A stretch of 64,000 bases of DNA from Deltaproteobacteria bacterium (GCA_015075075.1 JABTVA010000008.1:50215-114214), one strand, 5' to 3'. Positions 4,610 to 56,781 are shown, numbered from the stretch's first letter. The notes: generated by a model from the letters alone, not told the origin. Numbers and translations: made by a program.

Positions 4610-4635
4610 TTCCGGTCCTGATCATCGGGGCCAGC

Positions 4636-6441: not shown

Positions 6442-6671
6442 ATGAAGATTGTTGAAGGTTTTCAGGAGTTTACCACCGGGGCCCGCCGGTTTGCAAGCCG
6501 ATATTACCTTTGTCCGGCGCCCCTGGCCTCAAGGTCCGAAATGTATCTGGAGGCAGAAGTGTCGCCGAGCTCAAGCGCCTTTCTCATGCTGGCGTATGAT
6601 CTCTCGAAATTGCCGAGGTGCATATATACCTTGCCGAGGTCAATGTGCGCGGACGGGTCCGAGGGGTCGAG
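6371..6671. repeat. Near-identical ~300-bp segmental duplication, copy A (gene 3 end / intergenic / gene 2 start)
   Basis: Direct sequence comparison. Positions 6380-6612 match 8170-8402 exactly, with scattered mismatches beyond. Confidence 0.9.
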
Positions 6672-8228
6672 CGCAATCGCCTTCTGGAAGTCTTTAAGCG
6701 CATCGACGTAACGGCCTGCAAGGGCGTATGCCGTGCCGCGCGCCTTGTATACGGCCTTGCTTTCAGGGTCCGAATCCACTAACACGGTGAGGTCGGCGAT
6801 CCCTTTATCGAGCCTGCCCGCATTTACGAGGGCTACTCCGCGATTGAAATATATCTCGTTTATGAACGAAGGATGGAGGCTTACGCTCTTGTCCAGGTCT
6901 TTGATGGCATCTTCGTACATTCCCTTGGCAAGGTACACGGCGCCGCGGTTTACGTACCCGTATGCATAATCCGGGAAGAGCCTGACCTGATGGCTCCAGA
7001 GGGACAGTGAGTCCTTCCATACTCCAGCCTGCCCGAGCGTAGTGAAAGAGAGAAGGGCCGAGGCCGCTACCACTGAAGCCAGGACCGGCGCGAACGCGCT
7101 CCGGTTCTTTCCCGCGGCCCACCCTGCCCCTGCCGCAGCCAGTACCGCGAGGCCCATCCCCGGAATATAGGTGTATCTGTCGGCCGCGGCCTGCATCCCG
7201 ACCTGCAAAAACCCTATTACCGGGAGGAGCGTTACCGCAAAATAGGCCCAAACGGCTATGAAAACCCCGCTCCGCCTCCTGAGATAGACGGCGAGCGCCG
7301 TAATCGCAAGGAGCGCGAGGGCATAGGCCGCAAAGTGAAGGTTAAGGCCGGTTTGGAAATTCCGCGGGTAAAGTGGGGCGAGGTCCATGGGCGCAAGGGT
7401 CTTGTAGATATAAAAGAGGTAGCCTCTTTCCGCGACATGGAGCCGTCCGCTAAAGACGAGCTCCTGGACCGTGACCATTGCCTTGCTCTGCGACCAGACG
7501 GTGATAAGCCCGGTCGCGAGGCTCAGCATGAAGAAAGGGAGCTTCTCGATAACGGGCCTCGTCCAGCCTTCTTTCCTGAACCTGTCGAATGGGTAGAAGT
7601 CGAGTATCAGGAGCACGAGCGGCATGGTGACGGTCATGGGCTTACTGAGAAGCGAGAGGACGAAAAAGACAAGCGCCAATATATACGACGAGGCTTTTTT
7701 GTGCTTGGCGTAGCCGAGATAGGAAAGGATACCCAGGAGGAAAAAGAACGCGTTCAGGACGTCCTTTCTTTCACTTATCCAGACCACGGACTCTACCCTT
7801 AGCGGATGGAGCCCGAAGAGGAGCCCGGCTGAAAGGGCGATTAAAAATAGCCCCCGTGCCCCGAAGCCGCCTCTTGTCCCCGCGAGCCTCGCGCCGAGCA
7901 AGGCGACAAGAAAGACGTTTGCCGCATGGAGTGCCGAGTTCGTGAGGTGGTATCCCAGCGGGTTCAGTCCCCATATGGCGTAATCGAGCGTGAAGGAGAG
8001 GAAAGTTACTGGCACCCATGTCCCGACCACGACCGAGGTAAAGGCCTGTTTGAGATCCAGGCCCCGGATATCCGGGTTCCCGGTCACGTAGGAAGGGTCG
8101 TCCAGGTCCACGAACTCGAAACCGAGGGAAGGCAGATAGACCGCGAACGAAGCCACGGCCGATAGGAGGGCCGCGATGAGGATTATGTTTTCTGGTTTGC
8201 GGTTATCCGGCATACCGGAACGGTCCAT
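6504..8228 (-). CDS. GT-C-fold (PMT_2/TMTC-like) membrane protein with C-terminal TPR repeats, paralog 3
   Basis: 574 aa. N-terminus identical to paralog 2 ('MDRSGMPDNRKPENIILIAALLSA'). C-terminus identical to paralog 4 ('...SYASMRKALELGDTSASRYISDLEARGAGQR'). Confidence 0.7.
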   Translation of the reverse strand: MDRSGMPDNRKPENIILIAALLSAVASFAVYLPSLGFEFVDLDDPSYVTGNPDIRGLDLKQAFTSVVVGTWVPVTFLSFTLDYAIWGLNPLGYHLTNSALHAANVFLVALLGARLAGTRGGFGARGLFLIALSAGLLFGLHPLRVESVVWISERKDVLNAFFFLLGILSYLGYAKHKKASSYILALVFFVLSLLSKPMTVTMPLVLLILDFYPFDRFRKEGWTRPVIEKLPFFMLSLATGLITVWSQSKAMVTVQELVFSGRLHVAERGYLFYIYKTLAPMDLAPLYPRNFQTGLNLHFAAYALALLAITALAVYLRRRSGVFIAVWAYFAVTLLPVIGFLQVGMQAAADRYTYIPGMGLAVLAAAGAGWAAGKNRSAFAPVLASVVAASALLSFTTLGQAGVWKDSLSLWSHQVRLFPDYAYGYVNRGAVYLAKGMYEDAIKDLDKSVSLHPSFINEIYFNRGVALVNAGRLDKGIADLTVLVDSDPESKAVYKARGTAYALAGRYVDALKDFQKAIALDPSDPSAHIDLGKVYMHLGNFERSYASMRKALELGDTSASRYISDLEARGAGQR

Positions 8229-8461
8229 ATGAAGATTGTTGAAGGTTTTCAGGAGTTTACCACCGGGGCCCGCCGGTTTGCAAGCCGATATTACCTTTGT
8301 CCGGCGCCCCTGGCCTCAAGGTCCGAAATGTATCTGGAGGCAGAAGTGTCGCCGAGCTCAAGCGCCTTTCTCATGCTGGCGTATGATCTTTCGAAATTGC
8401 CGAGGTGCATATATACCTTGCCGAGGTCTATGTGCGCCGAAGGGTCTCCGGGGTCGAGCTC
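8161..8461. repeat. Near-identical ~300-bp segmental duplication, copy B (gene 4 end / intergenic / gene 3 start)
   Basis: See copy A. Includes the identical 62-bp intergenic spacer. Confidence 0.9.
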
Positions 8462-10090
8462 CGCTGCCTTCAGGAAGTCTTCGAGCGCCTCCCCGTATTG
8501 GCCGGAAATGGCGTATGCGGTGCCGCGCGCCCTGAATATGGCCTTGTTCCCCGGGTCTGAATCGAGGACTACAGTAAAATCCGAGATACCTTCCCTGAAC
8601 CTGCCGGCGTTTACGAGGGCGCTCCCGCGGCTTGAGTACGCAGGCAATGTGTTCGGCTCCAGCTCTATGGCCTTATCGAGGTCCGGGATGGCCAGGTCGA
8701 ACCTGCCGAGGGTCAAATAGGCGTTCCCGCGGTTAAAGTACCCGTGGCCGCTTTCAGGAGACATCTTACGGAGGTCCTCTATCGCGGATTCGTTCATGCC
8801 AAGCGCAACATAAGCGGCGCTCCGGTTCACATACCCCTGGCTGTGGGACGGGAAGACCTCTATCTGCCGGCTCCAGAGGGAGACCGGATTTTTCCAGATC
8901 ATTTCCTGCTTGAAGGCGAAAAAGGAGAGTAGCCCCGATGCCGCCAAAACCAGCGCCAAAACGGCCGGGAGACTTTTGCTATTCCTTTTCACAATCCAGC
9001 CTGCCGCGGCGGAAACGAGAATCGCCAGTCCGATGGCCGGAATATATGTATACCTGTCGGCAGCCGCCTGCCTTCCTACCTGCATGAGGCCTATGACAGG
9101 GAGCAGCGTGACCGCGTAGCAGGCCCATGCGGAAATAAAGGCCTTGCTCCATCTACGAAGGTAAAGGGCGAGAATGGTTATGGCTGCAAGCGCCGCGAGG
9201 TAAAGGACCGCCGAAAGGTTAAGGCCTGAGGCGAAGTCGCGGGGGTAGAGGGGCGCAAGGCCGGCCGGGATGACCGACTTGTAAATATAGAATAGATACC
9301 CCCTCGCCGCGATATGGATCCGGTCGGCGAACGGGAGCGCCTCCGGCGGCATCACGGCCTTTCCCTGCGACCAGATGGTCATTAGCCCGGCTGCCAGGCT
9401 CAGCATTAAAAATGGGAGTTTTTCAATTAGCGGCCTCTTCCACCCTTCCCTCTTGAGCCTTTCAAGAGGATAGTAGTCTAATATGAGAAGCACGAGCGGC
9501 ATGGTGACCGTCATGGGCTTACTTAGAAGTGAAAGGACGAAAAGGACGAGCGTCAATACATAGGAGGATGCCTTTTTGTTTTCAGCATACCCGAGATAGG
9601 CGTGGAGGCCGAGGAGAAAGAAGAAGGCGTTCAGGACGTCCTTTCTTTCGCTGACCCATGCCACTGACTCGGCCCTTAGAGGGTGTAGTCCGAAAAGGAG
9701 CCCGGCCGAGAGGGCCATGAGGAATAGCCCGCCTGCCCCGAGACCGCCCCTTCTGCCGGCGAGCCTCGCGGCCAGGAAGGCCACGAGAAAGACGTTGGCG
9801 GAGTGGAGTATCGTGTTCGTGAGGTGGTACCCCAGCGGGTCCAGCCCCCATACGGCGTAATCGAGGGCGAATGACAGGAACGTGAGCGGTATCCAGGTGC
9901 CTACCACGACAGCCGTGAAGGCCCATTTGAGGTCAATGCCCTGGATATCAGGGTTCTCGGATACGTACGCGGGGTCGTCCCAGTCAACGAAATCGAAGCC
10001 CAGGGAAGGGAGATAGAGCGCGAATGCGGCTATAGCGGATATGAGGGCCGCGAGGAAAATAAGTTTAAAAGAATAATCTCTTTCCGGCAT
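8291..10090 (-). CDS. GT-C-fold (PMT_2/TMTC-like) membrane protein with C-terminal TPR repeats, paralog 4
   Basis: 599 aa, same architecture ('FDFVDWDD'). Confidence 0.7.
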   Translation of the reverse strand: MPERDYSFKLIFLAALISAIAAFALYLPSLGFDFVDWDDPAYVSENPDIQGIDLKWAFTAVVVGTWIPLTFLSFALDYAVWGLDPLGYHLTNTILHSANVFLVAFLAARLAGRRGGLGAGGLFLMALSAGLLFGLHPLRAESVAWVSERKDVLNAFFFLLGLHAYLGYAENKKASSYVLTLVLFVLSLLSKPMTVTMPLVLLILDYYPLERLKREGWKRPLIEKLPFLMLSLAAGLMTIWSQGKAVMPPEALPFADRIHIAARGYLFYIYKSVIPAGLAPLYPRDFASGLNLSAVLYLAALAAITILALYLRRWSKAFISAWACYAVTLLPVIGLMQVGRQAAADRYTYIPAIGLAILVSAAAGWIVKRNSKSLPAVLALVLAASGLLSFFAFKQEMIWKNPVSLWSRQIEVFPSHSQGYVNRSAAYVALGMNESAIEDLRKMSPESGHGYFNRGNAYLTLGRFDLAIPDLDKAIELEPNTLPAYSSRGSALVNAGRFREGISDFTVVLDSDPGNKAIFRARGTAYAISGQYGEALEDFLKAAELDPGDPSAHIDLGKVYMHLGNFERSYASMRKALELGDTSASRYISDLEARGAGQR

Positions 10091-10344: not shown

Positions 10345-11058
10345 ATGACCGTTCTGAGGACCCTTGCCGTATGGCTCCTGGGCCTGCCCATAACCATAGC
10401 CCTTTTCATCCTCGTCCTCTTTTCCCTTCCGTTCGAAAGGCAGGGCAGGGCCGTCCATTCGATAGGGGCCTTCTGGTCGAGGGTGGTGCTCGCGCTATCG
10501 GGCGTAAGGGTGGACGTGCAAGGAAGGGAGAACGTCCCTTCGGGCAGGCCTGTTATCTTCGTCTCCAACCACCAGGGCGCCTTTGATATACCCGCGCTCC
10601 AGGCCTTTTTGCCCGTGCAGTTCCGCTGGGTGGCCAAAAAGAGCCTTTTCAGGATACCGGTCATAGGCTGGAGCATGAGCCTTGCCGGGTATGTAGGCAT
10701 CGACAGGGACAACCCGGCGGAGGCCATGAAGAACATGGAAGAGGCCTCGGAAAAGATAAAAAGGGGTACTTCGGTATTGATATTCCCCGAGGGCACGAGG
10801 TCCGGTTCTGTCCGGCTCCTCCCCTTTAAGCGAGGGGCCTTCGTCCTCGCAAAAAAAAGCGGCGTCCCTGTCGTGCCTGTCGCAATAGACGGCACTTCGG
10901 ATATAATGAGGCGTGGGGGCATCCTCATAAGGCCATCGCGTGTCAGGATACGGATAGGCAGGCTCGTGGAAACCGGGCCTCTTGACGAGAAGGAGCTACG
11001 GAACAGGATGAAGAAGGACATAGAAGGACTGTTGCAGGCCGGGGCAGGGAGGCCCTGA
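10345..11058 (+). CDS. plsC: 1-acyl-sn-glycerol-3-phosphate acyltransferase
   Basis: 237 aa. Has the 'NHQGAFD' (HX4D) and 'FPEGTR' acyltransferase motifs and an N-terminal TM anchor. Confidence 0.85.
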   Translation: MTVLRTLAVWLLGLPITIALFILVLFSLPFERQGRAVHSIGAFWSRVVLALSGVRVDVQGRENVPSGRPVIFVSNHQGAFDIPALQAFLPVQFRWVAKKSLFRIPVIGWSMSLAGYVGIDRDNPAEAMKNMEEASEKIKRGTSVLIFPEGTRSGSVRLLPFKRGAFVLAKKSGVPVVPVAIDGTSDIMRRGGILIRPSRVRIRIGRLVETGPLDEKELRNRMKKDIEGLLQAGAGRP

Positions 11059-11067
11059 AGAGGATTC

Positions 11068-12729
11068 ATGGGAGAGCCCCTTAAGATAATCCCGCTCGGC
11101 GGGCTGGGCGAGATAGGCCTTAACATGATGGCCATCGAGTACGGCGACTCCATAATGGTCGTGGACTGCGGCCTCATGTTCCCCGAGGACTACATGCTCG
11201 GGATAGACATCGTCATCCCGGACGTGAGCTATCTTAAGAAGAACGCCGAAAAGGTAAAGGCCTACATAATAACCCACGGCCACGAGGACCACACCGGCGC
11301 CCTGCCTTTCATCCTGCCCCAGGTCGACGCGCCTATATACGGCACCGCCCTCACCATAGGTCTCATAGAGGAAAAGCTCGAGGAGTTCGGACTCGCCAAA
11401 TCGACATTATTCGAGACGGTCCGCCCGAGGGACAGGGTATCCATAGGGCCCTTTGATATAGAATTCATACGCGTCAGCCACTCGATAGTGGACGGCTGCG
11501 GCCTTGCCATAAGGACGCCCGTGGGCACCGTTATCCATACCGGGGACTTCAAGATGGACCAGACCCCGGTGGACGGAGAGGTAATGGACTACGCCCGGTT
11601 CTCGGAATACGGTGAATCCGGGGTGCTCCTTCTCATGTCGGACTCGACGAACGTCGAAAAGGAGGGCTATTCCCTTTCCGAGCGCGAGATAGGGAAAAAC
11701 CTCGAGGAGATATTCAGGAGGTGCGAGGGCAGGATAATAGTCGCCGCCTTCTCCTCCAACATACACCGCATCCAGCAGGTCATGGAAGCCGCCGCAAGGC
11801 ACGGGCGCAGAGTGATACTCAACGGCAAGAGCATGGTCGCCAACGTGCGGATAGCGCACGCCCTCGGGTATCTCAAGTACCCGGAAGGGCTCATGGCCGA
11901 CTTGAAGGAAATAGACTCGATACCCCACGACCAGGTCGTGCTCCTCACTACCGGGAGCCAGGGCGAGCCCATGAGCGCCCTTACCCGCATGGCAATGGAC
12001 AACCACAAGCAGATAAAGGTAAGGAAGGGCGATACCGTCATCCTTTCCTCCAAGTTCATACCCGGCCACGAGAAGGCCATATCCACCATGATGAACCACC
12101 TCTACAGGAGAGGCGCTGACGTCATATACGAGAAGGTCTCGGAGGTGCACGTCTCCGGGCACGCGAGCCAGGAGGAGCTTAAGATAATGCTCAACATGGT
12201 GCGCCCGAAATACTTTATCCCGGTGCACGGCGAGTACAGGCACCTGGTCCTCCATTCGAGGCTCGCCGCGAGGATCGGCATACCTGAAGAGAACGTAATA
12301 ATAGCCGAGGACGGGGACGTGGTCGAGTTCGCCCCTGAAGGCGGGTTCGTGAAGGCCGGGAAGGTCGAGTCCGGGAGGGTATTCGTTGACGGCAAGGGCG
12401 TGGGAGACGTGGGCGAGATGGTATTGAAGGACAGGAACCACCTGGCCCAGGACGGCATGGTGCTCGCCCTCGTTGCCATAAACGCCACGACCGGCGACAT
12501 GGTCTACGGCCCCGAGATAGTGACCCGCGGGCTTGTGCTCGAAGAGGGCAGGCCCGGCCTCATCGAGGAAGCCCGGAAGGTGGTCATAGAGTCGCTCAAC
12601 AGCCTCAATGCCGAGGTAAAGACCGAGCAGCTCGAGATAAAGGAAGAGGTGAGGAGGGCGCTACGCCGTTACTTCAACAGGACGTTGGAGCGGAAACCCG
12701 TCATACTCCCGATGATAATCGAGATATAG
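11068..12729 (+). CDS. rnj: Ribonuclease J (metallo-beta-lactamase/beta-CASP RNase)
   Basis: 553 aa with the 'HGHEDHTGALP' MBL motif and beta-CASP C-terminal domain. Length and motifs are typical of RNase J. Confidence 0.85.
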   Translation: MGEPLKIIPLGGLGEIGLNMMAIEYGDSIMVVDCGLMFPEDYMLGIDIVIPDVSYLKKNAEKVKAYIITHGHEDHTGALPFILPQVDAPIYGTALTIGLIEEKLEEFGLAKSTLFETVRPRDRVSIGPFDIEFIRVSHSIVDGCGLAIRTPVGTVIHTGDFKMDQTPVDGEVMDYARFSEYGESGVLLLMSDSTNVEKEGYSLSEREIGKNLEEIFRRCEGRIIVAAFSSNIHRIQQVMEAAARHGRRVILNGKSMVANVRIAHALGYLKYPEGLMADLKEIDSIPHDQVVLLTTGSQGEPMSALTRMAMDNHKQIKVRKGDTVILSSKFIPGHEKAISTMMNHLYRRGADVIYEKVSEVHVSGHASQEELKIMLNMVRPKYFIPVHGEYRHLVLHSRLAARIGIPEENVIIAEDGDVVEFAPEGGFVKAGKVESGRVFVDGKGVGDVGEMVLKDRNHLAQDGMVLALVAINATTGDMVYGPEIVTRGLVLEEGRPGLIEEARKVVIESLNSLNAEVKTEQLEIKEEVRRALRRYFNRTLERKPVILPMIIEI

Positions 12730-12860
12730 GCTGCTGCTCAAAAAATCCATCTGCGTCGAAGGCTACGTCGCTGGACACTCCGGCGTACGCGAAAAGTACG
12801 CCTCGTTCCTTGCTCCCCTGTTCCTAATGGGGCCTCGCATCCGGAGCTTTTTGAGCAGCC
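12729..12860. mobile_element. MITE-like element, family C (TIR GGCTGCTCAAAAA / TTTTTGAGCAGCC)
   Basis: Terminal inverted repeats. Homologous copies at 24033, 31811, 35350 and 56511. Its 3' end is read through by the artificial N-terminal extension of the next ORF. Confidence 0.7.
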
Positions 12861-12913
12861 TAAGCGAATTTTGTATTTTCCCGCAACCTGTTGGCCGAAG
12901 GGTTTTTATTGAG

Positions 12914-19737: not shown

Positions 19738-19880
19738 TTGTTGTCATTGCGGAGCTTTGGCTCGAAGCAATCTCAAATGCCCGATATTCCAAAAAATGAG
19801 AGTGCTTCCCGCCACGCTTCGCTCGCGGCTTCGGCTCACACGCTCGCAATGACGAATATGCGAATCAGTCAGAGCTTCCT
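19738..19880. mobile_element. MITE-like element, family B (degenerate copy)
   Basis: Shares the core 'TTGTCATTGC...GATTGCTTCCCGCCACGCTTCGCTCGCGGCTTCGGCTCACACGCTCGCAATGACGAA' with the copy at 22226. The right TIR is degenerate ('GAATCAGTCAGAGCTTCC'). Confidence 0.65.
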
Positions 19881-24032: not shown

Positions 24033-24300
24033 GGCTGCTGAAAAAGCCCAATCTGCTGTGTCGTCTTCAAAGTTGGACACTCCGGCGTACAAGAAAAGTA
24101 CGCCTCATTCCTAAGGAAGCTCTGATTAATTCAATGTGTCGTCATTGCGAGCGAAGTTGAAACAATCTTATCTTTGGAAAATCAAGCATTAGAGATTGCT
24201 TCGGAGCTAAAGCTCCTAAGCAATGACAACAGAAAACAGAATTAATCAGACCTTCCCTAATTTTTCGACTCCTTGCATCTTGAGCTTTTTGAGCAGCCTG
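24033..24300. mobile_element. MITE family C copy interrupted by a nested family B MITE (24120-24251)
   Basis: Left part 24033-24119 and right part 24252-24300 match the intact C copies. The inserted B element carries TIRs 'GGAAGCTCTGATTAATTC / GAATTAATCAGACCTTCC'. Confidence 0.75.
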
Positions 24301-24380
24301 AATGTGGGTTTTTGAAGTAATCTTTTAAAGCCCAAGCCGGTTCTGATTTCTGTCCGTCCATCAAGGCCGGGAGGCCTGCC

Positions 24381-31810: not shown

Positions 31811-31958
31811 GGCTGCTGAAAAAGCCCAATCTGCTGTGTCGTCTTCAAAATTCGTCATTGCAGCGTACAAAAAAGTACGCCTCATTCCTCATTTTTCGAC
31901 TCCTTGCATCTTGGACTTTTTGAGCAGCCTGGATGTGATTTTTGAGTTTTTCAGCAAT
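31811..31958. mobile_element. MITE family C (intact copy)
   Basis: TIR GGCTGCTGAAAAAG...CTTTTTGAGCAGCC, plus the conserved tail GAGTTTTTCAGCAATCT. Confidence 0.75.
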
Positions 31959-31985
31959 CTTTAGATAGCCGTGGGCGGGATATAG

Positions 31986-32124
31986 GCAACCCTGAAAATT
32001 GATCTTTTCCCCGGACTCTGCGTCAGTCCGGGAATAAAAATGCTCACATATTATCCATATATGCTCCGCTTTTTATTCCCGGCCTTCCGGGAAAAGCGGG
32101 AAATCTCTAATTTTTAAGGTTGCC
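31986..32124. mobile_element. MITE family D (TIR GGCAACCYCTAAA / TTTARAGGTTGCC)
   Basis: About 140 bp. Core 'TTTTCCCCGGACTCTGCG...GGGAATAAAAATGCTCACATATT...ATATGCTCCGCTTTTTATTCCCGGCCTTCCGGGAAAAGCGGGAAA'. Four copies in the window. Confidence 0.75.
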
Positions 32125-32140
32125 TACATGGTATCCAGAG

Positions 32141-32199
32141 CCTTGCATCTTGGACTTTTTGAGCAGCCTGGATGTGGTTTTGAGTTTTTCAGCAATCTG
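32141..32199. mobile_element. Partial MITE family C (3' half)
   Basis: Matches the 3' terminal ~60 bp of C copies. Confidence 0.6.
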
Positions 32200-35349: not shown

Positions 35350-35495
35350 GGCTGCTCAAAACGCCCTTGAATGCGTCGTCTTCAAATTGGCAACTCCGGC
35401 GTACAGGAAAGTACGACTCATTCCTCATTTTTCGACCCCTTGCATCTTGGACTTTTTGAGCAGCCTGAACGTGCCATGAGTTTTTCAGCAACCTG
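35350..35495. mobile_element. MITE family C
   Basis: TIRs GGCTGCTCAAAA...CTTTTTGAGCAGCC and the tail GAGTTTTTCAGCAACCT. Confidence 0.7.
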
Positions 35496-35621: not shown

Positions 35622-36425
35622 ATGAGAAGGAATAAGAGGTCCAGGCCAAAGGCGGAGCCCCCGGCAGTCAGCCGGAACATATCGATAGTGCTGGTAGAGC
35701 CGCAGAGCTCAGGCAACGTCGGAAGCACTGCCCGGGCCATGAGAAACACGGGTTTTTCCGACCTGGTGCTCATAAACCCGTGCGAATACAAAAATAACGA
35801 GTCCTATTCAATGGCCTGCAAGGCCGACGGCGTGCTTGAGACGGCCCGGGTCTTCCCTGACCTTGAAAGCTACATCCCCGAGCCGCGCGTCCTCGTCGGG
35901 ACGACCCGGAGGATAGGCAGGCACAGGTACCCGGTCCTGACCCTTTCCGAGGCGGTCCCGGAGATCCTCAGGCTTGCGGCTTCCAACAGGGTGGCCATAC
36001 TCTTCGGCAGGGAGGACAAGGGGCTCCTTAACGAGGAGATACCGCTTTGCGACATGCTCGTTGAGATACCCACATCCGACGATTACCCCTCCATAAACCT
36101 CTCGCACGCGGTCTTTACGGTCTGCCACCACCTCTACACCGCCGCCGCGCCCAAGGCGCCTGCCATAAAGGTAGCGCCGAGAGGCGAACTCGAGCGGATG
36201 TACGAGCACATGGAGAGGACGCTCCGGGGAATAGGCTACGGCGACAAGGGCGGGGAATATCTCCTCGAAGCAATGATGCGGAGCTTCAGGCGCCTCTTCG
36301 GCAGGACAGGCCTCATGGAAAAGGAGGTCAACATGCTCCGGGGAGTATTCACGCAGATAGAGGCCCGGACGATAAACCCTGAAGAGGACGGGGGAAACAG
36401 GCATGCAGGAGCAGGAGCTCAATAG
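35622..36425 (+). CDS. SpoU/TrmH-family RNA 2'-O-methyltransferase (TrmJ-like)
   Basis: SPOUT motifs 'VLVEPQSSGNVGSTARAM', 'ILFGREDKGL' and 'SINLSHAVFTVCHHL'. Confidence 0.75.
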   Translation: MRRNKRSRPKAEPPAVSRNISIVLVEPQSSGNVGSTARAMRNTGFSDLVLINPCEYKNNESYSMACKADGVLETARVFPDLESYIPEPRVLVGTTRRIGRHRYPVLTLSEAVPEILRLAASNRVAILFGREDKGLLNEEIPLCDMLVEIPTSDDYPSINLSHAVFTVCHHLYTAAAPKAPAIKVAPRGELERMYEHMERTLRGIGYGDKGGEYLLEAMMRSFRRLFGRTGLMEKEVNMLRGVFTQIEARTINPEEDGGNRHAGAGAQ

Positions 36426-37320
36426 AAAAATGCTCGAAAGCGCTTCCGCGGCCCTGAAGGACGCGAGGGCCGAAGCGCTCCTCCTTTTTGTCGACGCGGC
36501 GGAGGACAAGACCTTCTGGCGGAGGTCCAGGGCCAGGAAAAAGTTCATCCTCGTCACGCAGGACGCCGAGACCGCCTCGGCCCTTGAATGCTTCAGAAAA
36601 GAGGTCAAGGCCATCCTCAAGCTCCCTGTCGTAAGGCTCACCAGGGTAGGCCAGGTAAAGCTCTCCCTCATCATGGGCGTGACCGAAGGGCTTATAAAAA
36701 GCTCGGACAAGGTCGTATGCGTGGCGGGCCTCCCTGTCCACGGCGTCCTCGATACCCTCATGATAATAGACCTCGAGCGCGAGGCCGAGGTCTTCAGCGC
36801 CATGGGCATCTCAATGGACCTTCTGAAAAAGGTCAAGCCAGAGGTGCTCGAAGCGGTCTTGAACATCGCGCTCGAGCTATCGAGCGAGGGCCGCGAAGGG
36901 AGGACCGTCGGCACGACCTTCGTCATAGGCGACAACGACAAGGTCATGGAGCTATCGCGTCCGCTCATAATGAACCCCTTCAAGGGCTATCCCGAGGAGG
37001 CCCGGAACATACTCGACGAGGCGGTCCACGAGACCATAAAGGAATACTCCCTCCTTGACGGCGCGTTCGTCATAAGGGAGGACGGGGTCGTCATGGCCGC
37101 CGGCATCCACCTGGACGCTGCCCTCAAGGAAGAGGGGCTCATGCCTGGGCTCGGCTGCAGGCACATGGCAGCCGCGGGCATAACCGACGTGACCGGGGCC
37201 GCGGCCATAACCATCTCCGGCTCAACGGGCATAGTCCGAATATTCAGGAAAGGCAAGGTCCTCCTCGAGCTTGAAAAGCCGCTCGCCAAGCCCGTAAACA
37301 AATCCGTATCCGCGCCTTGA
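36403..37320 (+). CDS. Diadenylate cyclase (DAC/DisA_N) domain protein with N-terminal uncharacterised domain
   Basis: C-terminal 'DGAFVIREDGVV..AAG' and 'LGCRHMAAAGITDVTGAAAITISGSTGIVRIF'. These correspond to the DGA and (T)RHRAA motifs of c-di-AMP synthases. Confidence 0.6.
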   Translation: MQEQELNRKMLESASAALKDARAEALLLFVDAAEDKTFWRRSRARKKFILVTQDAETASALECFRKEVKAILKLPVVRLTRVGQVKLSLIMGVTEGLIKSSDKVVCVAGLPVHGVLDTLMIIDLEREAEVFSAMGISMDLLKKVKPEVLEAVLNIALELSSEGREGRTVGTTFVIGDNDKVMELSRPLIMNPFKGYPEEARNILDEAVHETIKEYSLLDGAFVIREDGVVMAAGIHLDAALKEEGLMPGLGCRHMAAAGITDVTGAAAITISGSTGIVRIFRKGKVLLELEKPLAKPVNKSVSAP

Positions 37321-37689
37321 GCCTTGCGCTTGACAAGCGGCTCCAAGCCGGGTAGGGTGGACACAGCCCACCATTTCTCTGAGGTACAGGGCGACAGAAG
37401 AATCTCGTATTCAAGCCTCGTCGAAAAAGACCTTATAACGCGCTGCCGCGCTCTTTTTGGGCATGAGGCTCCGCGCCCTTTCCGCCTCCATCCTCCGGGC
37501 TCGGCCCTTAAGTCGCTCGGCCTTCGGCCTCGCTCCTAACAGCCCCGCCTCGCCCGCCCCGCCCCCATCCCCATGTTCGCTCCGCCTCATGCCCCCGGGG
37601 TTGTTTAAAAACAAACCAGCGCCTTCCTTGAGCTTGACAAGCGGCTCATGGAAATGCAATCATCATCCTGGAAATAGAAATGACATGTC

Positions 37690-37845
37690 CTGGTCAAGGG
37701 AATCCCGTGATCCGCCTGGGTGCGGAGAATCGGGAACGGACCCGCCACTGTGAGCGGATACGAAACCCGCACGAGCCACTGGCCTTAAGGCCGGGAAGGC
37801 GCGGGGAGTAGGTTGTTAATCCGCAAGTCAGGAGACCTGCCAGGA
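37690..37845 (+). promoter_or_regulatory. Cobalamin (AdoCbl) riboswitch
   Basis: 'AAGGGAATCCCGTGATCCGCCTGGGTGCGGAGAATCGGGAACGGACCCGCCACTGTGAGCGG' matches the 5' consensus, including the GCCACTG core. The B12 box 'AAGTCAGGAGACCTGCC' lies at 37825-37841. Confidence 0.8.
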
Positions 37846-37911
37846 TATGCCTCACGGATCTTCGATGGTAAAGAAGGTGAGGGCGGTTGCACTGGTTTTT
37901 CGAGTCTCCGC

Positions 37912-37950
37912 AGACCCTCCCTTCGCAAGAAGAGAGGGTTTTTTTATTTT
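37912..37950 (+). terminator. Riboswitch expression-platform terminator
   Basis: 'CCCTCCCTTCGCAAGAAGAGAGGG' hairpin followed by T7ATTTT. Confidence 0.6.
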
Positions 37951-38021
37951 CAAGCGGTCATGGCGGTTTTGTTCGAGAGCGCCGGTTTCCCGGGCGTACA
38001 TCTGAAACGGAGCATGTTGCG

Positions 38022-39050
38022 ATGTCTGATGCGAGAGGGTCAAAGGCCGTATTGCTTCTCGGCCACGGGAGCAAGGCCGACGAGGCCAACGAGACGCTTA
38101 GAAGGATTGCGAAGGCCGTGAAGGAGGCGGGCGGGTACGGCATAGTCCAGCCGGCCTTTCTCCAGATGGAGAGCCCGGACTTCCAGGAGGCCGTGGATAT
38201 GATGGTCGGGAGGGGGTTTACGGATATTACGGTCATGCCGTATTTCCTCTACATGGGCCTCCATGTGACAAAGGACCTGCCCGATGAGATAGAGCGGGCA
38301 AAGACGAGGCACAAGGGCCTCAGGATTTCAGTCAAGGACAACCTGGGCTTCCATGAAAAGCTCGTTGACATAACAATAGAGCGGATAGAGGCGGGGGCTA
38401 CCCGGGACGCGGGCGTGCCCAGCCAGCACCCGATAGAAAAAGAGAGCTTCAGGATATTGTCGTCCGAGATGGACGATAGCGCTTTTTCCTCCCTCGAACT
38501 CCCGATAATAAAGAGGGTCGTACACTCGACCGCCGATTTCGAGTACAAGGACCACGTGGGTTTCAGCCCTGGCGCTGTGGAGGCCGGCATAGAGGCCCTG
38601 AGGGCCGGGCGGGACATAATAACGGACGTAAGGATGATAGAGGCCGGGATATCGAAGGCTCGATTAACTCCCTTCGGTTCCGCCGTCCGCTGTTTCTCAT
38701 CTGACAGGGACGTGGCCGTGATTGCGGAGAAGGAGGGGCTTACCAAGACCGCGGCCTCCATGAGAAAGGCCTCGAAGCGGATGGACGGCTCGATAGTGGC
38801 GATAGGGAACGCGCCGACCGCGCTACAGGAGCTTCTGAAAATCGTCAAGGAAGGCGGGCCGAGGCCAGCCCTCGTCATAGGCGTGCCCGTCGGCTTCGTC
38901 GGCGCGGTCGAATCCAAGGAAGAGCTCGCGAAGAGCGGCATTCCTCATATACTCACGAGAGGGCGTAAGGGCGGGAGCACGGTCGCCGTGGCCATAGTGA
39001 ACGCACTTGCGATACTCGCCTCCGAGCTCGTGGAGGGTAGCGTCAAATAA
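38022..39050 (+). CDS. cbiC: Fused sirohydrochlorin cobaltochelatase (CbiX-small) / precorrin-8X methylmutase (CbiC)
   Basis: N-terminal CbiX signature 'VLLLGHGSKADEANE...MPYFLYMGLHV'. C-terminal CbiC/CobH domain with the conserved His-containing 'VVHSTADFEY' segment. Lies downstream of the B12 riboswitch. Confidence 0.75.
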   Translation: MSDARGSKAVLLLGHGSKADEANETLRRIAKAVKEAGGYGIVQPAFLQMESPDFQEAVDMMVGRGFTDITVMPYFLYMGLHVTKDLPDEIERAKTRHKGLRISVKDNLGFHEKLVDITIERIEAGATRDAGVPSQHPIEKESFRILSSEMDDSAFSSLELPIIKRVVHSTADFEYKDHVGFSPGAVEAGIEALRAGRDIITDVRMIEAGISKARLTPFGSAVRCFSSDRDVAVIAEKEGLTKTAASMRKASKRMDGSIVAIGNAPTALQELLKIVKEGGPRPALVIGVPVGFVGAVESKEELAKSGIPHILTRGRKGGSTVAVAIVNALAILASELVEGSVK

Positions 39051-39067
39051 CTGAAATACGGTTGTTT

Positions 39068-39351
39068 GCAACCTCTAAAAATTGCTATTTTCCCCGGACT
39101 CTGCGTAGTGCGGGAATAAAAATGCTCACATATTCAAAATATATGCTCCGCTTTTTATTCCCGCCTTTCCGGGAAAAGCGGGAAAAATCTCTAAGGAACC
39201 TCTGATTAATTCATGTGTTCGTCATTGCGAGCGAAGCGAAGCAATCTTATCTTTTGGAAAATCAAGCGCTTAGAGATTGCTTCGGAGCTGAAGCTCCGCA
39301 ACGACAAGAAACGAGAATTAATCAGAGCTTCTCTAATTTTTAGAGGTCGCC
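39068..39351. mobile_element. MITE family D with a nested family B MITE (39200-39327)
   Basis: Left D TIR 'GCAACCTCTAAAAATT' at 39068 and right D TIR 'TTTTTAGAGGTCGCC' at 39337-39351. The B element 'CTCTGATTAATTC...GAATTAATCAGAG' is inserted just before the right TIR. Confidence 0.75.
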
Positions 39352-39395
39352 TTGAATCAGCCTTTTGCCTCTTTCGATCTCAATGGGGAGCGAGA

Positions 39396-40367
39396 ATGCA
39401 CATACCTGACGGATACCTGAGCCCGGCGACCTGCGGCGTTTTTTACGCGGCAATGGCCCCGGTCTGGTACTTCGCCTCGAAGAGGGCGGAGAAGGTCCTT
39501 AAGCTCAGGGAGATGCCGTTACTTGCGCTCGGCGCGGCCTTCGTCTTCGTCATCATGATGTTCAACATCCCGCTCCCCGGCGGCTCTTCAGGGCACATGG
39601 CGGGCGGGGCGGTCGTGGCCATAGCGCTCGGGCCCTGGGCCGGGATAATCGCCATGAGCCTCGCGCTCGCGCTCCAGGCATTCCTCTTCGGCGACGGCGG
39701 CATCATGACGCTTGCGGCCAATTGCTTCAACATGGCCGTCATAATGAGCCTTTCGGGATACGGCATTTACCGGGCGCTCGCCTTCGGGGAGCCCGGCGCC
39801 GGAAGAAGGTTTTTCGCCGCCGCGGTTGCGGCATACGTCGCCGTCAACCTGGCCGCGCTCGCGGTGGCAGTGGAGCTGGGCATGCAGCCTCTTCTGGCAG
39901 CCGGGGCTGACGGCAGGCCGCTCTACGCGCCGTACCCGCTCTCCATCGCGGTGCCGGCGATGATGATCCCGCACCTCTTCTTTTTCGGGCCTGTCGAGGC
40001 TGTCGGGACGGCCCTTGTGGTATCCTATGTGCACTGGATGGATAGGGGCCTCCTCCACAAGGGGAAGGGGTCGCTTAAGCCCTTATGGATCGCGTTGTCC
40101 GTTCTTGCAGTGCTTACGCCCGCAGGGCTTATCGCGTCTGGCACGCCCTGGGGCGAATGGGGAAAGGATGAGCTTATGGAGCTCATAGGCTATGTGCCCG
40201 CCGGGATGGAGAAGTACGGGGAGACATGGAAGGGGTTTGTCCCGGATTACAGCCTCCCGCGGATGAGCGGCTTGCCTGAGCCCGTTATCTATATGCTCTC
40301 GGCCCTCCTTGGGAGCGCGCTCCTGGTCGCGGCCGTATACGCGTGGGGCAGGCTATGGCGGAGGTGA
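39396..40367 (+). CDS. cbiM: Cobalt ECF transporter S component CbiM fused to CbiN
   Basis: Starts 'MHIPDGYLS...' (CbiM N-terminal His motif). The C-terminal extension carries a CbiN-like TM pair. Confidence 0.8.
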   Translation: MHIPDGYLSPATCGVFYAAMAPVWYFASKRAEKVLKLREMPLLALGAAFVFVIMMFNIPLPGGSSGHMAGGAVVAIALGPWAGIIAMSLALALQAFLFGDGGIMTLAANCFNMAVIMSLSGYGIYRALAFGEPGAGRRFFAAAVAAYVAVNLAALAVAVELGMQPLLAAGADGRPLYAPYPLSIAVPAMMIPHLFFFGPVEAVGTALVVSYVHWMDRGLLHKGKGSLKPLWIALSVLAVLTPAGLIASGTPWGEWGKDELMELIGYVPAGMEKYGETWKGFVPDYSLPRMSGLPEPVIYMLSALLGSALLVAAVYAWGRLWRR

Positions 40368-41224
40368 TCCTGCCGGAGTGGCTCAAGGGCCGGGAAGAGG
40401 CGCCCGCCTCCTTGAGGGCCGGGAGCGCAGGCTTCATTGAAAGGAGCCTCGTTAACTTCGCCTCAACGATGAAAAGGCTCTATGTTGACGGAGACTACTC
40501 TTCTAAAAAAGGCGCGCTCCAGGCGATAGAGCCCAGGGCGAAGCTTGCGGGGTTTTTCTTCATCATAATAGCCGCCTCGCTTGCCCATAGCGCGGTCTTT
40601 CTGGGAGGGGTGCTCGTACTGGCCTTTGCCCTTTCATTTGTATCGCGGATAGGGCCGGGCCCCCTCGCGAAGAGGACGTTTCCGGCGTTCGTATTTACGT
40701 CCGTCATAGTCATACCCGTTATATTCGGCGCGGTCACGCCCGGAAGGGAAGTGCTGGACGTTTTCGGGGCGTCGGTCACTGGAGAGGGGCTCCGTAGCGC
40801 GGGTTTCTTCCTCGTGAGGGTCGCTGCCATGGTCTCGACTGCGATGCTCCTTTCGCTTACGACCAGGGAGGCGGATTTCTTCCGCGGGCTCGGCAGGTTC
40901 GTCCCGTCGTTTTTCGCCACCGCGCTCTTTTTGACCTTCAGGTACGCGTTCGTGCTTATAAAGACCGCCGAGGACTCGGCCCTCGCGATGAAGGCGAGGA
41001 CCATAGCAGGGGCCCGCGCAGTCGAGTCCCGGACTTGGTTCGCTGGAAGGGCAGCGTTACTTCTGAAAAAGGCATACGGCGTTGCCGAAGAGGTTGGCAT
41101 GGCGATGGTATCGAGGGGCTTTGACGGGAAGCTTAAGGGTGCAGCGGCCCGGGCGCTCCGGGGAAGGGACTACATCTGGCTCGGGTTCGCGAGCTTCGTC
41201 CTCTTCCTCTCCTTCGGAGCGTGA
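40343..41224 (+). CDS. cbiQ: Cobalt ECF transporter T component
   Basis: Polytopic membrane protein in the position of the EcfT/CbiQ family, between cbiMN and cbiO. Confidence 0.75.
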   Translation: MGQAMAEVILPEWLKGREEAPASLRAGSAGFIERSLVNFASTMKRLYVDGDYSSKKGALQAIEPRAKLAGFFFIIIAASLAHSAVFLGGVLVLAFALSFVSRIGPGPLAKRTFPAFVFTSVIVIPVIFGAVTPGREVLDVFGASVTGEGLRSAGFFLVRVAAMVSTAMLLSLTTREADFFRGLGRFVPSFFATALFLTFRYAFVLIKTAEDSALAMKARTIAGARAVESRTWFAGRAALLLKKAYGVAEEVGMAMVSRGFDGKLKGAAARALRGRDYIWLGFASFVLFLSFGA

Positions 41225-42042
41225 GCCGCGTAGCGGAAGAGGTCCTGGGGGCCGAAGGAGTAAGCTTCTCATACGGCCCGGCCCCGGCCCTCTCCAACGT
41301 AAGCTTAAGCGTCGCCAAAGGCGAATGCCTGGCCATACTCGGGGCGAACGGGAGCGGGAAGTCGACTCTCCTTAAGCTCCTGGACGGCCTCATATTCCCG
41401 TCCGCCGGATGTGTTTTCTTCGAGGGCAGGCCGATAACGGAAGAGGCCTTGAAGGGCGAGTTCCTCGTCCGCTTGAGGTCCGGCCTGGGCTTCCTCTTCC
41501 CCGAGCCGGACGTGCAGCTCTTCTGCCCTACGGTCTTCGACGAGCTGGCGTTCGGCCCGCTCCAGCTCGGGCTCGGGGCAGAGGAGGCTGCAAAGAGGGC
41601 GGGGGACCTCCTCCGTATGCTCGGGATAGAGGCGCTAAGGGACAGGCCGCCCTACTCCCTTAGCGGAGGAGAGAAGAAAAAGGTGGCGATAGCGTCGGTC
41701 CTGGCGATAAATCCAGGGGTGCTACTGCTGGATGAGCCCACGAACGGGCTCGACCCGAGAAGCCAGGTCTGGCTCTACGAGCTCCTTCTCTCCTTGAGGG
41801 GCCACGGGAAAACGGTTATAATCGCAACCCATGACCTGAGCCTCGCTGGCGACCTCTCGGAAAGGGTCTTGGTGCTGGACGAATCGCATGCGGTAGCGGC
41901 GGACGGGCCGGCAGGCGAGATACTGAAGGACAAGGGCCTGCTACTTAAGGCTAACATCATACACGAGCACGAGCACAGGCACGGCGATGTAGTGCACAGG
42001 CACAGCCACGGGCCGTTCTCCACTCACGACGAGCACGATTAG
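41221..42042 (+). CDS. cbiO: Cobalt ECF transporter ATPase with His-rich C-terminal tail
   Basis: Walker A 'GANGSGKST', signature 'LSGGEKKK' and Walker B 'LLLDEPT'. Tail 'HEHEHRHGDVVHRHSHGPFSTHDEHD'. Confidence 0.85.
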   Translation: MSRVAEEVLGAEGVSFSYGPAPALSNVSLSVAKGECLAILGANGSGKSTLLKLLDGLIFPSAGCVFFEGRPITEEALKGEFLVRLRSGLGFLFPEPDVQLFCPTVFDELAFGPLQLGLGAEEAAKRAGDLLRMLGIEALRDRPPYSLSGGEKKKVAIASVLAINPGVLLLDEPTNGLDPRSQVWLYELLLSLRGHGKTVIIATHDLSLAGDLSERVLVLDESHAVAADGPAGEILKDKGLLLKANIIHEHEHRHGDVVHRHSHGPFSTHDEHD

Positions 42043-52715: not shown

Positions 52716-52849
52716 TCGACACCCTGTTAGAGGGGGCGAGCTTAAGCGCGCCTTGACTCTTACGCATCCTCCGTGTTAACATTTTTTACCGAAGGGCCGG
52801 TTTCTCTCTCAATATAGGCCCCGGGTATTAGATTTCCTAAAATCAAATA

Positions 52850-53005
52850 GAAACGATCTCCGAGCCATCCTGCCTAAAGCCGGTCCTTTTCATGGCCGCG
52901 CAACGGGGGGTGGCCGATAGGGCCCTGCTGGAAACGGTTTGGCCTCCCCACTGGAAAGGAGATTGACAGTGCCAACCCCTTTCCGTGGCGGTTGGTTTTT
53001 TTTTG
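52850..53005 (+). promoter_or_regulatory. Molybdenum-cofactor (Moco) riboswitch-like leader with terminator
   Basis: 'CTCCGAGCCATCCTGCC..AAAGCCGG...GGAAACGG...GGCCTCCCCACTGGAAAGGAGA' matches hallmark blocks of the Moco RNA motif. It is followed by hairpin 'CCAACC...GGTTGG' plus T9, immediately upstream of modABC. Confidence 0.55.
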
Positions 53006-56497: not shown

Positions 56498-56781
56498 GCA
56501 ACCTCTAACAGGCTGCTGAAAAAGTCGTTCTCCGTCGAAGGCTACGTCGCTCGTCACTGCGGCGTACAAGAAAAGTACGCCTCATTCCTCGCTCCTCGAC
56601 GCCTCGCATCTGGAGCTTTTTGAGCAGCCTGAACAAAAACGGAGTTTTTCAGCAAGCTGCCAAGAAAGGATCTTTTCCCCGGACTCTGCTTCGGGCCGGG
56701 AATAAAATGCTATATGCTCCGTTTTTTATTCCCGGCCTTCCGGGAAAAGCGGGAAAAATCTCTGATTTTTTAGAGGTTGCC
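56498..56781. mobile_element. MITE family D with a nested family C MITE (56511-56658)
   Basis: D left TIR 'GGCAACCTCTAACA' at 56498. Directly followed by C 'GGCTGCTGAAAAAG...GAGTTTTTCAGCAAGCTG'. The D body then runs to the right TIR 'TTTTTAGAGGTTGCC' at 56781. Confidence 0.7.

Follow-up and report, generated by a model that had tools for sequence, protein, structure and literature searches.

We analysed a 64,000-nucleotide stretch of DNA (the window; GCA_015075075.1, JABTVA010000008.1:50215-114214, positions counted from its first letter) from a Deltaproteobacteria bacterium. The locus described here is the start of an operon for cobalamin biosynthesis by the anaerobic pathway and for cobalt uptake, and it belongs to an uncultured member of the Desulfobacterota, UBA5799 group. 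[quoted passage not shown] In the reading that we consider likely, this riboswitch-controlled operon has received a 282-bp insertion in its promoter region and, in the spacer before cbiM, a MITE of family D and then one of family B, and is transcribed through both elements into cbiM.

The locus was compared with its nearest other genomes, which are two metagenome-assembled genomes (MAGs) labelled Deltaproteobacteria/Desulfobacterota UBA5799 (L001, which is UBA5799 MAG DIDN01000105, and L096) and two Logan assemblies (L101 and L103, the latter a contig from SRR23814899). These four share 83-89% nucleotide identity with the window in common genes. L004, L006 and L007 are more distant relatives that also have the DAC gene upstream.

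By its sequence features, the riboswitch is real, ordinary and conserved. The Rfam covariance model RF00174 matches positions 37674-37858 (+) with 108.4 bits (gathering score 31.5, E=3e-26) over model positions 1-189 of 189, and this is the one cobalamin riboswitch that the Rfam scan reports in the whole window. A reading made earlier from the window's sequence alone (hereafter the sequence-only reading) had placed an adenosylcobalamin riboswitch at 37690-37845 and proposed an Rfam scan as the check; the predicted interval falls inside the match, and the adenosylcobalamin type is supported. The B12 box AGTCAGGAGACCTGCC is located at 37826-37841 in the 3' part of the aptamer, where AGUCAGGAGACCUGCC aligns with the consensus AGCCAGGAGACCuGCC. 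The aptamer is on the same strand as cbiXC, in its 5' leader, with a terminator after it, and an RF00174 match also precedes cbiXC in each of the 16 relatives scanned.

The expression platform (37850-37945, +) is composed of a hairpin, a candidate antiterminator and an intrinsic terminator. The hairpin, at 37850-37882, is formed by CCUCAC/GUGAGG and CUUC/GAAG pairings. Because its sequence complements the terminator's 5' arm, segment GAAGGUGAGGG (37873-37883) is a plausible antiterminator. The terminator, CCCUCCCUUC-GCAA-GAAGAGAGGG followed by U7, spans 37915-37945: its stem pairs 37915-37924 with 37929-37938 around the GCAA loop, and the seven T residues occupy 37939-37945. Since its stem is bulged, a simple terminator scanner did not report it. 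The hairpin (loop GAAGGUAAA or a near variant), the terminator and the U-run are retained after the aptamer in L001-L007, so that the terminator assigned to the riboswitch by the sequence-only reading is borne out. As judged from this conserved anatomy, binding of a corrinoid would allow the terminator to form and would switch the operon off; with corrinoid absent, GAAGGUGAGGG would pair with the terminator 5' arm and RNA polymerase would continue into cbiXC.

The aptamer of the window deviates from those of the nearest relatives in one respect. At 37690-37700 it has 2 nt only where they carry, over a total of about 88 nt, a P2 hairpin (GCCC-GCAA-GGGC) and a variable extension (9583-9670 in L001, 5558-5640 in L096 and 3215-3306 in L101). 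Despite this, the Rfam score still reaches 108 bits. On sequence comparison, the missing P2 region is a second lineage-specific rearrangement of the same leader.

Operons of cbi and cobalt-transport genes under the control of a B12 riboswitch are well described. Comparative-genomics descriptions of the cobalamin riboswitch were reportedly given by Vitreschak and Rodionov in 2003. The present copy shares with the known riboswitches in front of cbi/cob and cobalt-transport operons the full-length model match, the B12 box, the location on the same strand and the intrinsic terminator; nothing essential differs, with the variable P2 hairpin and its extension lacking here. The riboswitch, promoter, fusion enzyme and transporter are textbook components, and the relatives examined have the riboswitch and the gene order as well.

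Between the DAC gene and the aptamer there are two exact copies of the 15-mer CTTGACAAGCGGCTC. They are located at 37329 and 37633, with a spacing of 304 nt; the chance expectation for this 15-mer, with two mismatches allowed, is 0.19 per window. The sequence-only reading had noticed this repeat: both copies are exact and the second position is as it had given, and the first, which it had put at 37328 and 305 nt away, is off by one. The repeat extends beyond the 15-mer, to 16 nt exactly and to 22 nt with 21 of 22 positions identical (37322-37343 and 37626-37647), and up to 32 nt of the two copies align with one 3-nt gap. The box contains a genuine -35 hexamer, TTGACA, as had been suspected.

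Copy 2, together with the native promoter, occupies 37626-37663 (+), as defined by a sigma-70 consensus scan and by conservation. Its -35 hexamer TTGACA (37634-37639) is followed by an 18-nt spacer and the extended -10 element TGc-AATCAT (37655-37663). The promoter prediction, which the sequence-only reading had recommended, yields one sigma-70-like site matching 10 of 12 consensus positions in 37000-39700, and this site is at copy 2. The pattern CTTGACA-N17/18-TGnAATCAT is present at equal distance from the aptamer in L001-L007, L096, L101 and L103. To judge by this conservation, transcription would start from a sigma-70 promoter that uses copy 2 as its -35 region.

Copy 1, CCTTGCGCTTGACAAGCGGCTC (37322-37343, +), immediately follows the stop codon of the DAC gene, which is the original orthologous position. 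Through GCGGCTCC it does not differ from the one box that L101 has, and it can be aligned with the one box present in each of L001, L096 and L103. Its TTGACA (37330-37335) is followed 17 nt further on by TAGGGT (37353-37358), a new sequence that replaces the conserved -10 element. On sequence grounds, only the -35 side is duplicated, and the conserved extended -10 and the distance to the aptamer are kept by copy 2 alone, which argues against the earlier proposal of a duplicated promoter.

The two copies flank a lineage-specific insertion of 282 bp (37344-37625), which is absent from L001, L096, L101, L103, L004, L006 and L007. BLAST aligns L001, L096 and L101 to the window on either side of the insert, and the two alignments of each share 14-26 nt at a single box. 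L103 has a single CTTGACA between the DAC gene and the riboswitch, and L004, L006 and L007 have a single box next to the DAC gene; in the multiple alignment, L001, L004, L006 and L007 show a gap of about 304 nt. The empty site of L101 reads ...CCTTGAGCCTTGCGCTTGACAAGCGGCTCC|GAGAAATGCAATCAT, where the left part corresponds to copy 1 and the right part continues with the -10 element that follows copy 2. Comparison with the four near relatives, each with one box, shows that the 282 bp were inserted in this lineage, just downstream of the -35 hexamer and with duplication of the target. The duplicated target of about 22-32 nt spans the stop codon of the DAC gene as well as the -35 box; the native promoter was rebuilt intact on the right, and an orphan -35 that faces new sequence was left on the left.

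An assembly artefact was ruled out as the origin of this arrangement, since it recurs in two NCBI MAGs and in Logan unitigs of separate runs, and since the exact repeat shared by the two sides is only 16 nt, below the k-mer size of assemblers. The two MAGs are GCA_048500075.1 (JASNYS010000004.1), to which the window is 99.86% identical, and GCA_023384475.1 (JAHDWX010000002.1). Across the studied locus, each differs from the window at one base (position 38554, within cbiXC, in GCA_048500075.1), and the two boxes, the insert and the MITEs are arranged identically in both. Logan unitigs of SRR11593520, SRR21762700 and SRR30765736 (three more samples share L082) independently reach both sides of the insert; unitigs of separate runs span its left junction and reach its right part. 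The insert is C-rich on the + strand, and its segment 37460-37600 has 74% G+C and 50% C. Unitigs stop at 37464 and 37504 and resume at 37531 within this tract, breaks that may reflect a drop in coverage or micro-heterogeneity.

The opposite polarity, in which the two-box state is ancestral and the relatives have lost a 304-bp unit by recombination between the direct repeats, is very improbable. A deletion between direct repeats of 16-22 nt would be mechanistically easy and would leave one box, as is seen in the relatives. Such a history nevertheless needs the unit to have been lost several times over, independently and in identical form, in L001/L103, L096, L101 and the more distant L004, L006 and L007, and no trace of the 282 bp is visible in any relative.

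A degenerate third copy of the box, TCCTCGAGCTTGAAAAGCCGCTCGCCAAGCC, lies at 37262-37291 (+), inside the end of the DAC coding sequence, where it encodes LLELEKPLAK. It is identical to copy 2 at 20 of 23 positions, with an alignment score that none of 500 shuffles reached, and the CAAGCC that follows it matches the first bases of the insert. The third copy may have provided microhomology.

We found no other copy of the insert in the window or in the 80 loci searched. It has no Rfam match, even at E values up to 10, and no tRNA. Its folds on the two strands have z-scores of 0.13 and 0.21, about those of random sequence. Three open frames in it gave no Pfam match, and a search of 5.8 billion proteins with its longest frame, of 71 residues on the minus strand, returned only the same locus in GCA_023384475.1. 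A BLAST search gave no plasmid match, and two 21-mers of the insert were not found in viral contigs. For an internal inverted repeat, GGGCATGAGGC...GCCTCATGCCC, a metagenome scan produced seven unrelated repeats of the GGCATGA type. We therefore rejected the insert as a MITE, an insertion sequence-type element or a member of a repeat family (it lacks terminal inverted repeats, is single-copy wherever searched, has a flanking repeat of 22-32 nt and folds with z about 0), as a known RNA (neither Rfam nor the tRNA search gave a match) and as a gene fragment (no Pfam match, and only the same locus in the protein search). The idea that it is the relocated P2 extension missing from the aptamer was likewise discarded, there being no significant similarity.

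On the minus strand, the insert contains a G-quadruplex motif with short loops, GGGGATGGGGGCGGGGCGGG (37553-37572), which corresponds to a C-run tract on the + strand. There are 10 such motifs in the 64-kb window, so that this one is not exceptional; the unitig breaks (37464-37531) are located just upstream of it.

We also considered that the two boxes work as a pair, either as tandem promoters or as two operators for one regulator by which the DAC gene and the B12 operon are linked. In the tandem form, copy 1 with TAGGGT would drive either a long leader or, from the insert, a short RNA. Copy 1 does keep a perfect TTGACA with TAGGGT at 17 nt, GCTTGACAAGC is an 11-nt palindrome, and a weak hairpin with a T-run, GCGC-TGCC-GCGC-TCTTTTT, is situated about 90 nt downstream at 37441-37459. 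Copy 1 was nevertheless not reported by the promoter scan; by eye, its -10 matches 3 of 6 positions and lacks the TG. The insert has no Rfam match and folds no better than random sequence, and the nearest relatives have one box only. The part of the box that is invariant across the relatives is CTTGACA alone, and this is the signature of a -35 hexamer, not of an operator. We therefore regard both forms together as quite improbable. The sequence-only reading had offered a duplicated promoter or an operator shared with the DAC gene as explanations for the repeat; neither is upheld, and the repeat is better explained as a by-product of the insertion.

The 345-nt spacer between cbiXC and cbiM consists of 17 nt, a 284-nt MITE composite and 44 nt. 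In the composite (39068-39351), which lies between cbiXC and the ECF cobalt transporter genes, a MITE of family D encloses one of family B, exactly as the sequence-only reading had it. The left part of D (39068-39191, +) carries the left terminal inverted repeat GCAACCTCTAAAAATT. B follows at 39192-39336 (+) with the inverted repeats TAAGGAACCTCTGATTAATTC and GAATTAATCAGAGCTTCTCTAA and TAA on both sides, and the right end of D, TTTTTAGAGGTCGCC, occupies 39337-39351 (+), as assigned by repeat comparison and from the L096 orthologue. Family D elements are about 140 bp long, and their ends, GCAACCTCTAAAAATT and AATTTTTAGAGGTCGC, are complementary at 15 of 16 positions; family B elements are about 145 bp long, with inverted repeats of about 21 nt (TAAGGAACCTCTGATTAATTC and its complement). 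There are four D copies in the window (the others near 31986, 56669 and 59932), two each in L001 and L096 and one in L014, and four B copies in the window (the others near 19739, 22223 and 24111) and one in L006. MITE families D and B are new, and the rest of the locus fits known kinds.

The order of insertion can be read from orthologous loci. The order cbiXC-cbiM is retained by 13 relatives, 7 of which have a spacer of 0-37 nt; the spacer of L101 has 29 nt and neither element. L096 has D alone, uninterrupted and with the same junctions, and there the positions equivalent to 39194 and 39332 of the window abut at a single TAA. The D copies of the window and L096 (7017-7158 in L096) are the closest pair of all D copies (133/141 or 131/139 identical positions, depending on the alignment, or about 94%), and they share private substitutions, indicating one ancestral D insertion. 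Together, L101 (empty), L096 (D only) and the window (D and B) give the sequence of events: an empty site, then D, then B into D at TAA. B has TAA (or TA) on both sides where uninterrupted D copies have a single TAA, which may itself belong to the terminal repeat of B. For D, no clear target duplication is visible at the cbiXC-cbiM site.

Other small repeats are found in and around these operons. L096 has a second D copy at 11591-11715, between cbiD and cbiET. In L005, elements of a GCTGCTCAAAAAG...CTTTTTGAGCAGC family are located at about 9830-9960, between the terminator and the start of cbiXC, and at 11020-11168, in the cbiXC-cbiM spacer. A further MITE-like family with ends GCTGCTGAAAAAG and CTTTTTGAGCAGCC occurs in the window at 12733-12890, 24033-24311, 31811-32181, 35384-35495 and 56512-56660. 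Its members often adjoin D or B copies, indicating that the intergenic regions are crowded with clustered small repeats. Some Logan unitigs begin or end inside small repeats (35445, 39315).

How cbiM is transcribed across the composite was left by the sequence-only reading as a choice between read-through and a promoter supplied by the MITE. Of the two, we infer, read-through that starts at the riboswitch-controlled promoter is preferable, and it is also the best-supported reading overall. A consensus scan found no sigma-70-like site with at least 9 of 12 matching positions on the + strand of 39040-39420, and the composite contains no hairpin followed by a U-run. The locus has one RF00174 match and one strong promoter-like site. 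The downstream genes cbiM, cbiQ, cbiO and cbiD are intact, with ratios of non-synonymous to synonymous substitution rates (dN/dS) of 0.14-0.20 in comparison with L096; these values match that of cbiXC, on the other side of the MITE (0.14), and those obtained against L101, which has no MITE (0.12-0.23). The absence of a promoter or terminator motif in the MITEs, together with purifying selection on the genes behind them, thus argues for read-through. In addition, the ancestral spacers of 0-37 nt have no room for a separate promoter, which indicates that co-transcription is ancestral. cbiM and the cbi genes that follow would be co-transcribed from the riboswitch promoter, and the hairpins of the nested MITEs would ride along as a structured intercistronic segment of a polycistronic mRNA. 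A further riboswitch or other regulatory RNA in front of cbiM was considered and dismissed, as an Rfam scan of the spacer gave chance-level matches only, far under the gathering scores.

The alternative that the MITE carries an outward promoter, which would make cbiM, cbiQ, cbiO and the downstream cbi genes independent of the riboswitch in the manner of Correia elements, seems improbable to us. Promoters within MITEs are documented (Correia, MITEAba12, BrickBuilt, QMITE1 and SonMITE_1; PMC10969869), and B contains a weak site with 8 of 12 matches, TTGCGA-17-TATCTT, at 39225-39253. This site falls short of the 9 of 12 that no sequence on the + strand of 39040-39420 attains, and the ancestral spacers were too short for a separate promoter. 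L096 with D only and L101 with an empty site have the same gene order and show the same constraint, and it would be costly for about 15 B12 biosynthesis genes to escape feedback by B12.

A different possibility, compatible with read-through, is that the very stable nested hairpins of the composite are not neutral; they could act as a site for RNase III or RNase E, as a barrier to 3' exonucleases or by pausing or attenuating transcription in part. This might shift the balance between cbiXC and the transporter and cbi genes behind it, much as repetitive extragenic palindromic sequences (REP) and bacterial interspersed mosaic elements (BIME) do in operons of enterobacteria. In E. coli, intercistronic REP/BIME hairpins modulate relative expression within operons, for example at malE-malF. 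Both situations share a stable hairpin-forming repeat in a polycistronic transcript; for the MITEs of the window, such a role is a prediction from the fold. The RNA of the spacer is predicted to fold with -121.7 kcal/mol (z = -7.5), although terminal inverted repeats by themselves make any MITE fold well. The D copies of the window and L096 are more similar than the genes that flank them (85-89% nucleotide identity, dS 0.36-0.56), a similarity that could have arisen by gene conversion or by recent re-insertion of near-consensus copies. The extra D copy between cbiD and cbiET in L096 could be taken in favour of a function within operons, and L101 and most relatives do without the element at the site. 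The strand bias of D (8 of 9 copies on the strand of the cbi operon, with the direction of the flanking genes checked for some only) was dropped as evidence, since the count is small and the sampled regions are nearly all transcribed one way. On balance, we think that a regulatory effect of the hairpins is unlikely, with more to be said for it than for a promoter within the MITE.

Several observations weigh against our reading of the locus as a whole. We infer promoter use, termination and read-through throughout, and the promoter scan was of the sigma-70 type only, so that weak promoters in the MITEs or promoters for alternative sigma factors would be missed. Copy 1 with TAGGGT at 17 nt could be a weak promoter and give rise to a tandem-promoter effect. 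The flanking repeat of 22-32 nt exceeds classical target-site duplications, and the insert has neither terminal inverted repeats nor a second copy. The aptamer lacks the P2 region of the closest relatives, and its response to corrinoids is predicted. Finally, the D copy is 94% conserved between lineages whose flanking genes differ by a dS of 0.36-0.56; constraint, gene conversion or re-insertion could account for this, and, as far as sequence comparison can tell, D could be doing something rather than being passively read through.

Taking the unusual features of the insert and of D at face value leads to a more speculative proposal, which we hold to be improbable: that the insert is the footprint of an uncharacterised insertion mechanism, that the D MITE has been co-opted as a structured intercistronic regulator, or both. 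Such a mechanism may target the -35 region of a promoter and duplicate 22-32 nt, a length well above that produced by classical transposases, and may be closer to an att-type or repair-templated event. The orphan -35 may now drive a new short transcript.

Read-through across nested MITEs can be compared with small mobile elements in other bacteria. Neisseria Correia elements carry promoters, integration host factor sites and RNase III targets (PMC10969869). Like the elements described here, they are MITEs located just upstream of genes, and they are the model for the MITE-promoter idea of the sequence-only reading; here, however, no sigma-70-like promoter motif with at least 9 of 12 matches was found in D or B. 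Chunjie, a MITE of Geobacter uraniireducens Rf4 (Chen et al. 2008, as cited in PMC10969869), is, to the extent that this citation describes it, likewise small, with terminal inverted repeats and many copies, and resides in an intercistronic operon spacer of a deltaproteobacterium-like genome with the genes intact. According to the text of PMC10969869, Chunjie-1 disrupts one of two phosphate uptake operons. Compared with what that account gives, the elements here belong to other sequence families, two of them are nested, the operon is riboswitch-controlled and the order of events can be read from orthologous loci. The pneumococcal BOX, RUP and SPRITE repeats insert into each other (Croucher et al. 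2011, as summarised in PMC10969869); on that summary, nested insertion of small repeats into intergenic DNA is shared, and the elements and the host are unrelated.

A single operon junction thus offers a natural series of an empty site, one MITE and a nested pair, in which the selection analysis indicates that the downstream genes have stayed functional. The series supports the view that bacterial MITEs can sit within operons without breaking them, and the locus is a test case for the effects of hairpins on expression in a riboswitch-controlled polycistron.

The gene upstream of the repeated box (36403-37320, +; stop codon TGA at 37318-37320) encodes a protein with a DacZ_P sensor domain and a DAC domain (Pfam PF21755 and PF02457). 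The NCBIfam model DacZ is its top match, under the cut-off of that model. The exact protein is present in GCA_048500075.1 and in Logan runs. The name of the DacZ model contains 'Halo' (haloarchaeal), and the DacZ-type gene is conserved beside the B12 operon in this bacterial Desulfobacterota lineage.

The fusion gene cbiXC (38022-39050, +) is preceded by the ribosome-binding site GGAG at 38009-38012. As the sequence-only reading had proposed, it joins CbiX(small) and CbiC: Pfam assigns CbiX (PF01903) to residues 15-118 and CbiC (PF02570) to residues 138-330. From its domains, the protein is predicted to have sirohydrochlorin cobaltochelatase and cobalt-precorrin-8 methylmutase activities. The architecture is common: all of the 120 top-scoring protein clusters, at 54-99% identity to the query, contain both domains. 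The NCBIfam model NF004449 (PRK05782, 'bifunctional sirohydrochlorin cobalt chelatase/precorrin-8X methylmutase') has the same CbiX(small)-CbiC architecture, and residues 8-333 align with its profile positions 4-330. The score of 166.1 bits does not reach the curated cut-off of 298, so that the protein of the window shares the architecture and is not a member of the equivalog. Close homologues from Desulfobacterota MAGs that come with a source name bear the plain label 'precorrin-8X methylmutase'.

The cobalt transporter is encoded by cbiM-PDGLE (39396-40367, +; N-terminus MHIPDGY; identified with Pfam and NCBIfam), cbiQ (40355-41224, + in public assemblies; Pfam and NCBIfam) and cbiO (41221-42042, +; Pfam ABC_tran). 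The longest open frame of cbiQ starts at 40343, and this start was used for the family scans. CbiM, the T component CbiQ and the ATPase CbiO are thus encoded together, by overlapping genes. CbiM scores 296.9 with NCBIfam NF008873 (cut-off 225) and CbiQ 114 with TIGR02454 (cut-off 111.8). CbiN (Pfam PF02553) was not matched, and the C-terminal extension of CbiM is assigned by Pfam to PDGLE (PF13190). Of the cbiMN-Q-O arrangement given in the sequence-only reading, cbiM, cbiQ and cbiO therefore stand, and the canonical CbiN fusion is replaced by CbiM with a PDGLE domain. cbiO is followed by cbtB, cbiD, cbiET and further cbi genes.

In L001 (11003-11260) and L103 (5238-5604), cbiM-PDGLE, cbiQ and the 5' part of cbiO have been lost; what comes after cbiXC is a degraded 3' remainder of cbiO, with cbtB behind it. 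This loss indicates that the cobalt transporter is dispensable or has been replaced in that sublineage.

Elsewhere in the window, a molybdenum cofactor riboswitch (RF01055, 58.5 bits) is located at 52846-52977 (+). Positions 3100-10050 contain four tandem repeats of about 1.8 kb (families D1-D6) that are 63-83% mutually identical and resemble a tandem array of paralogous genes.

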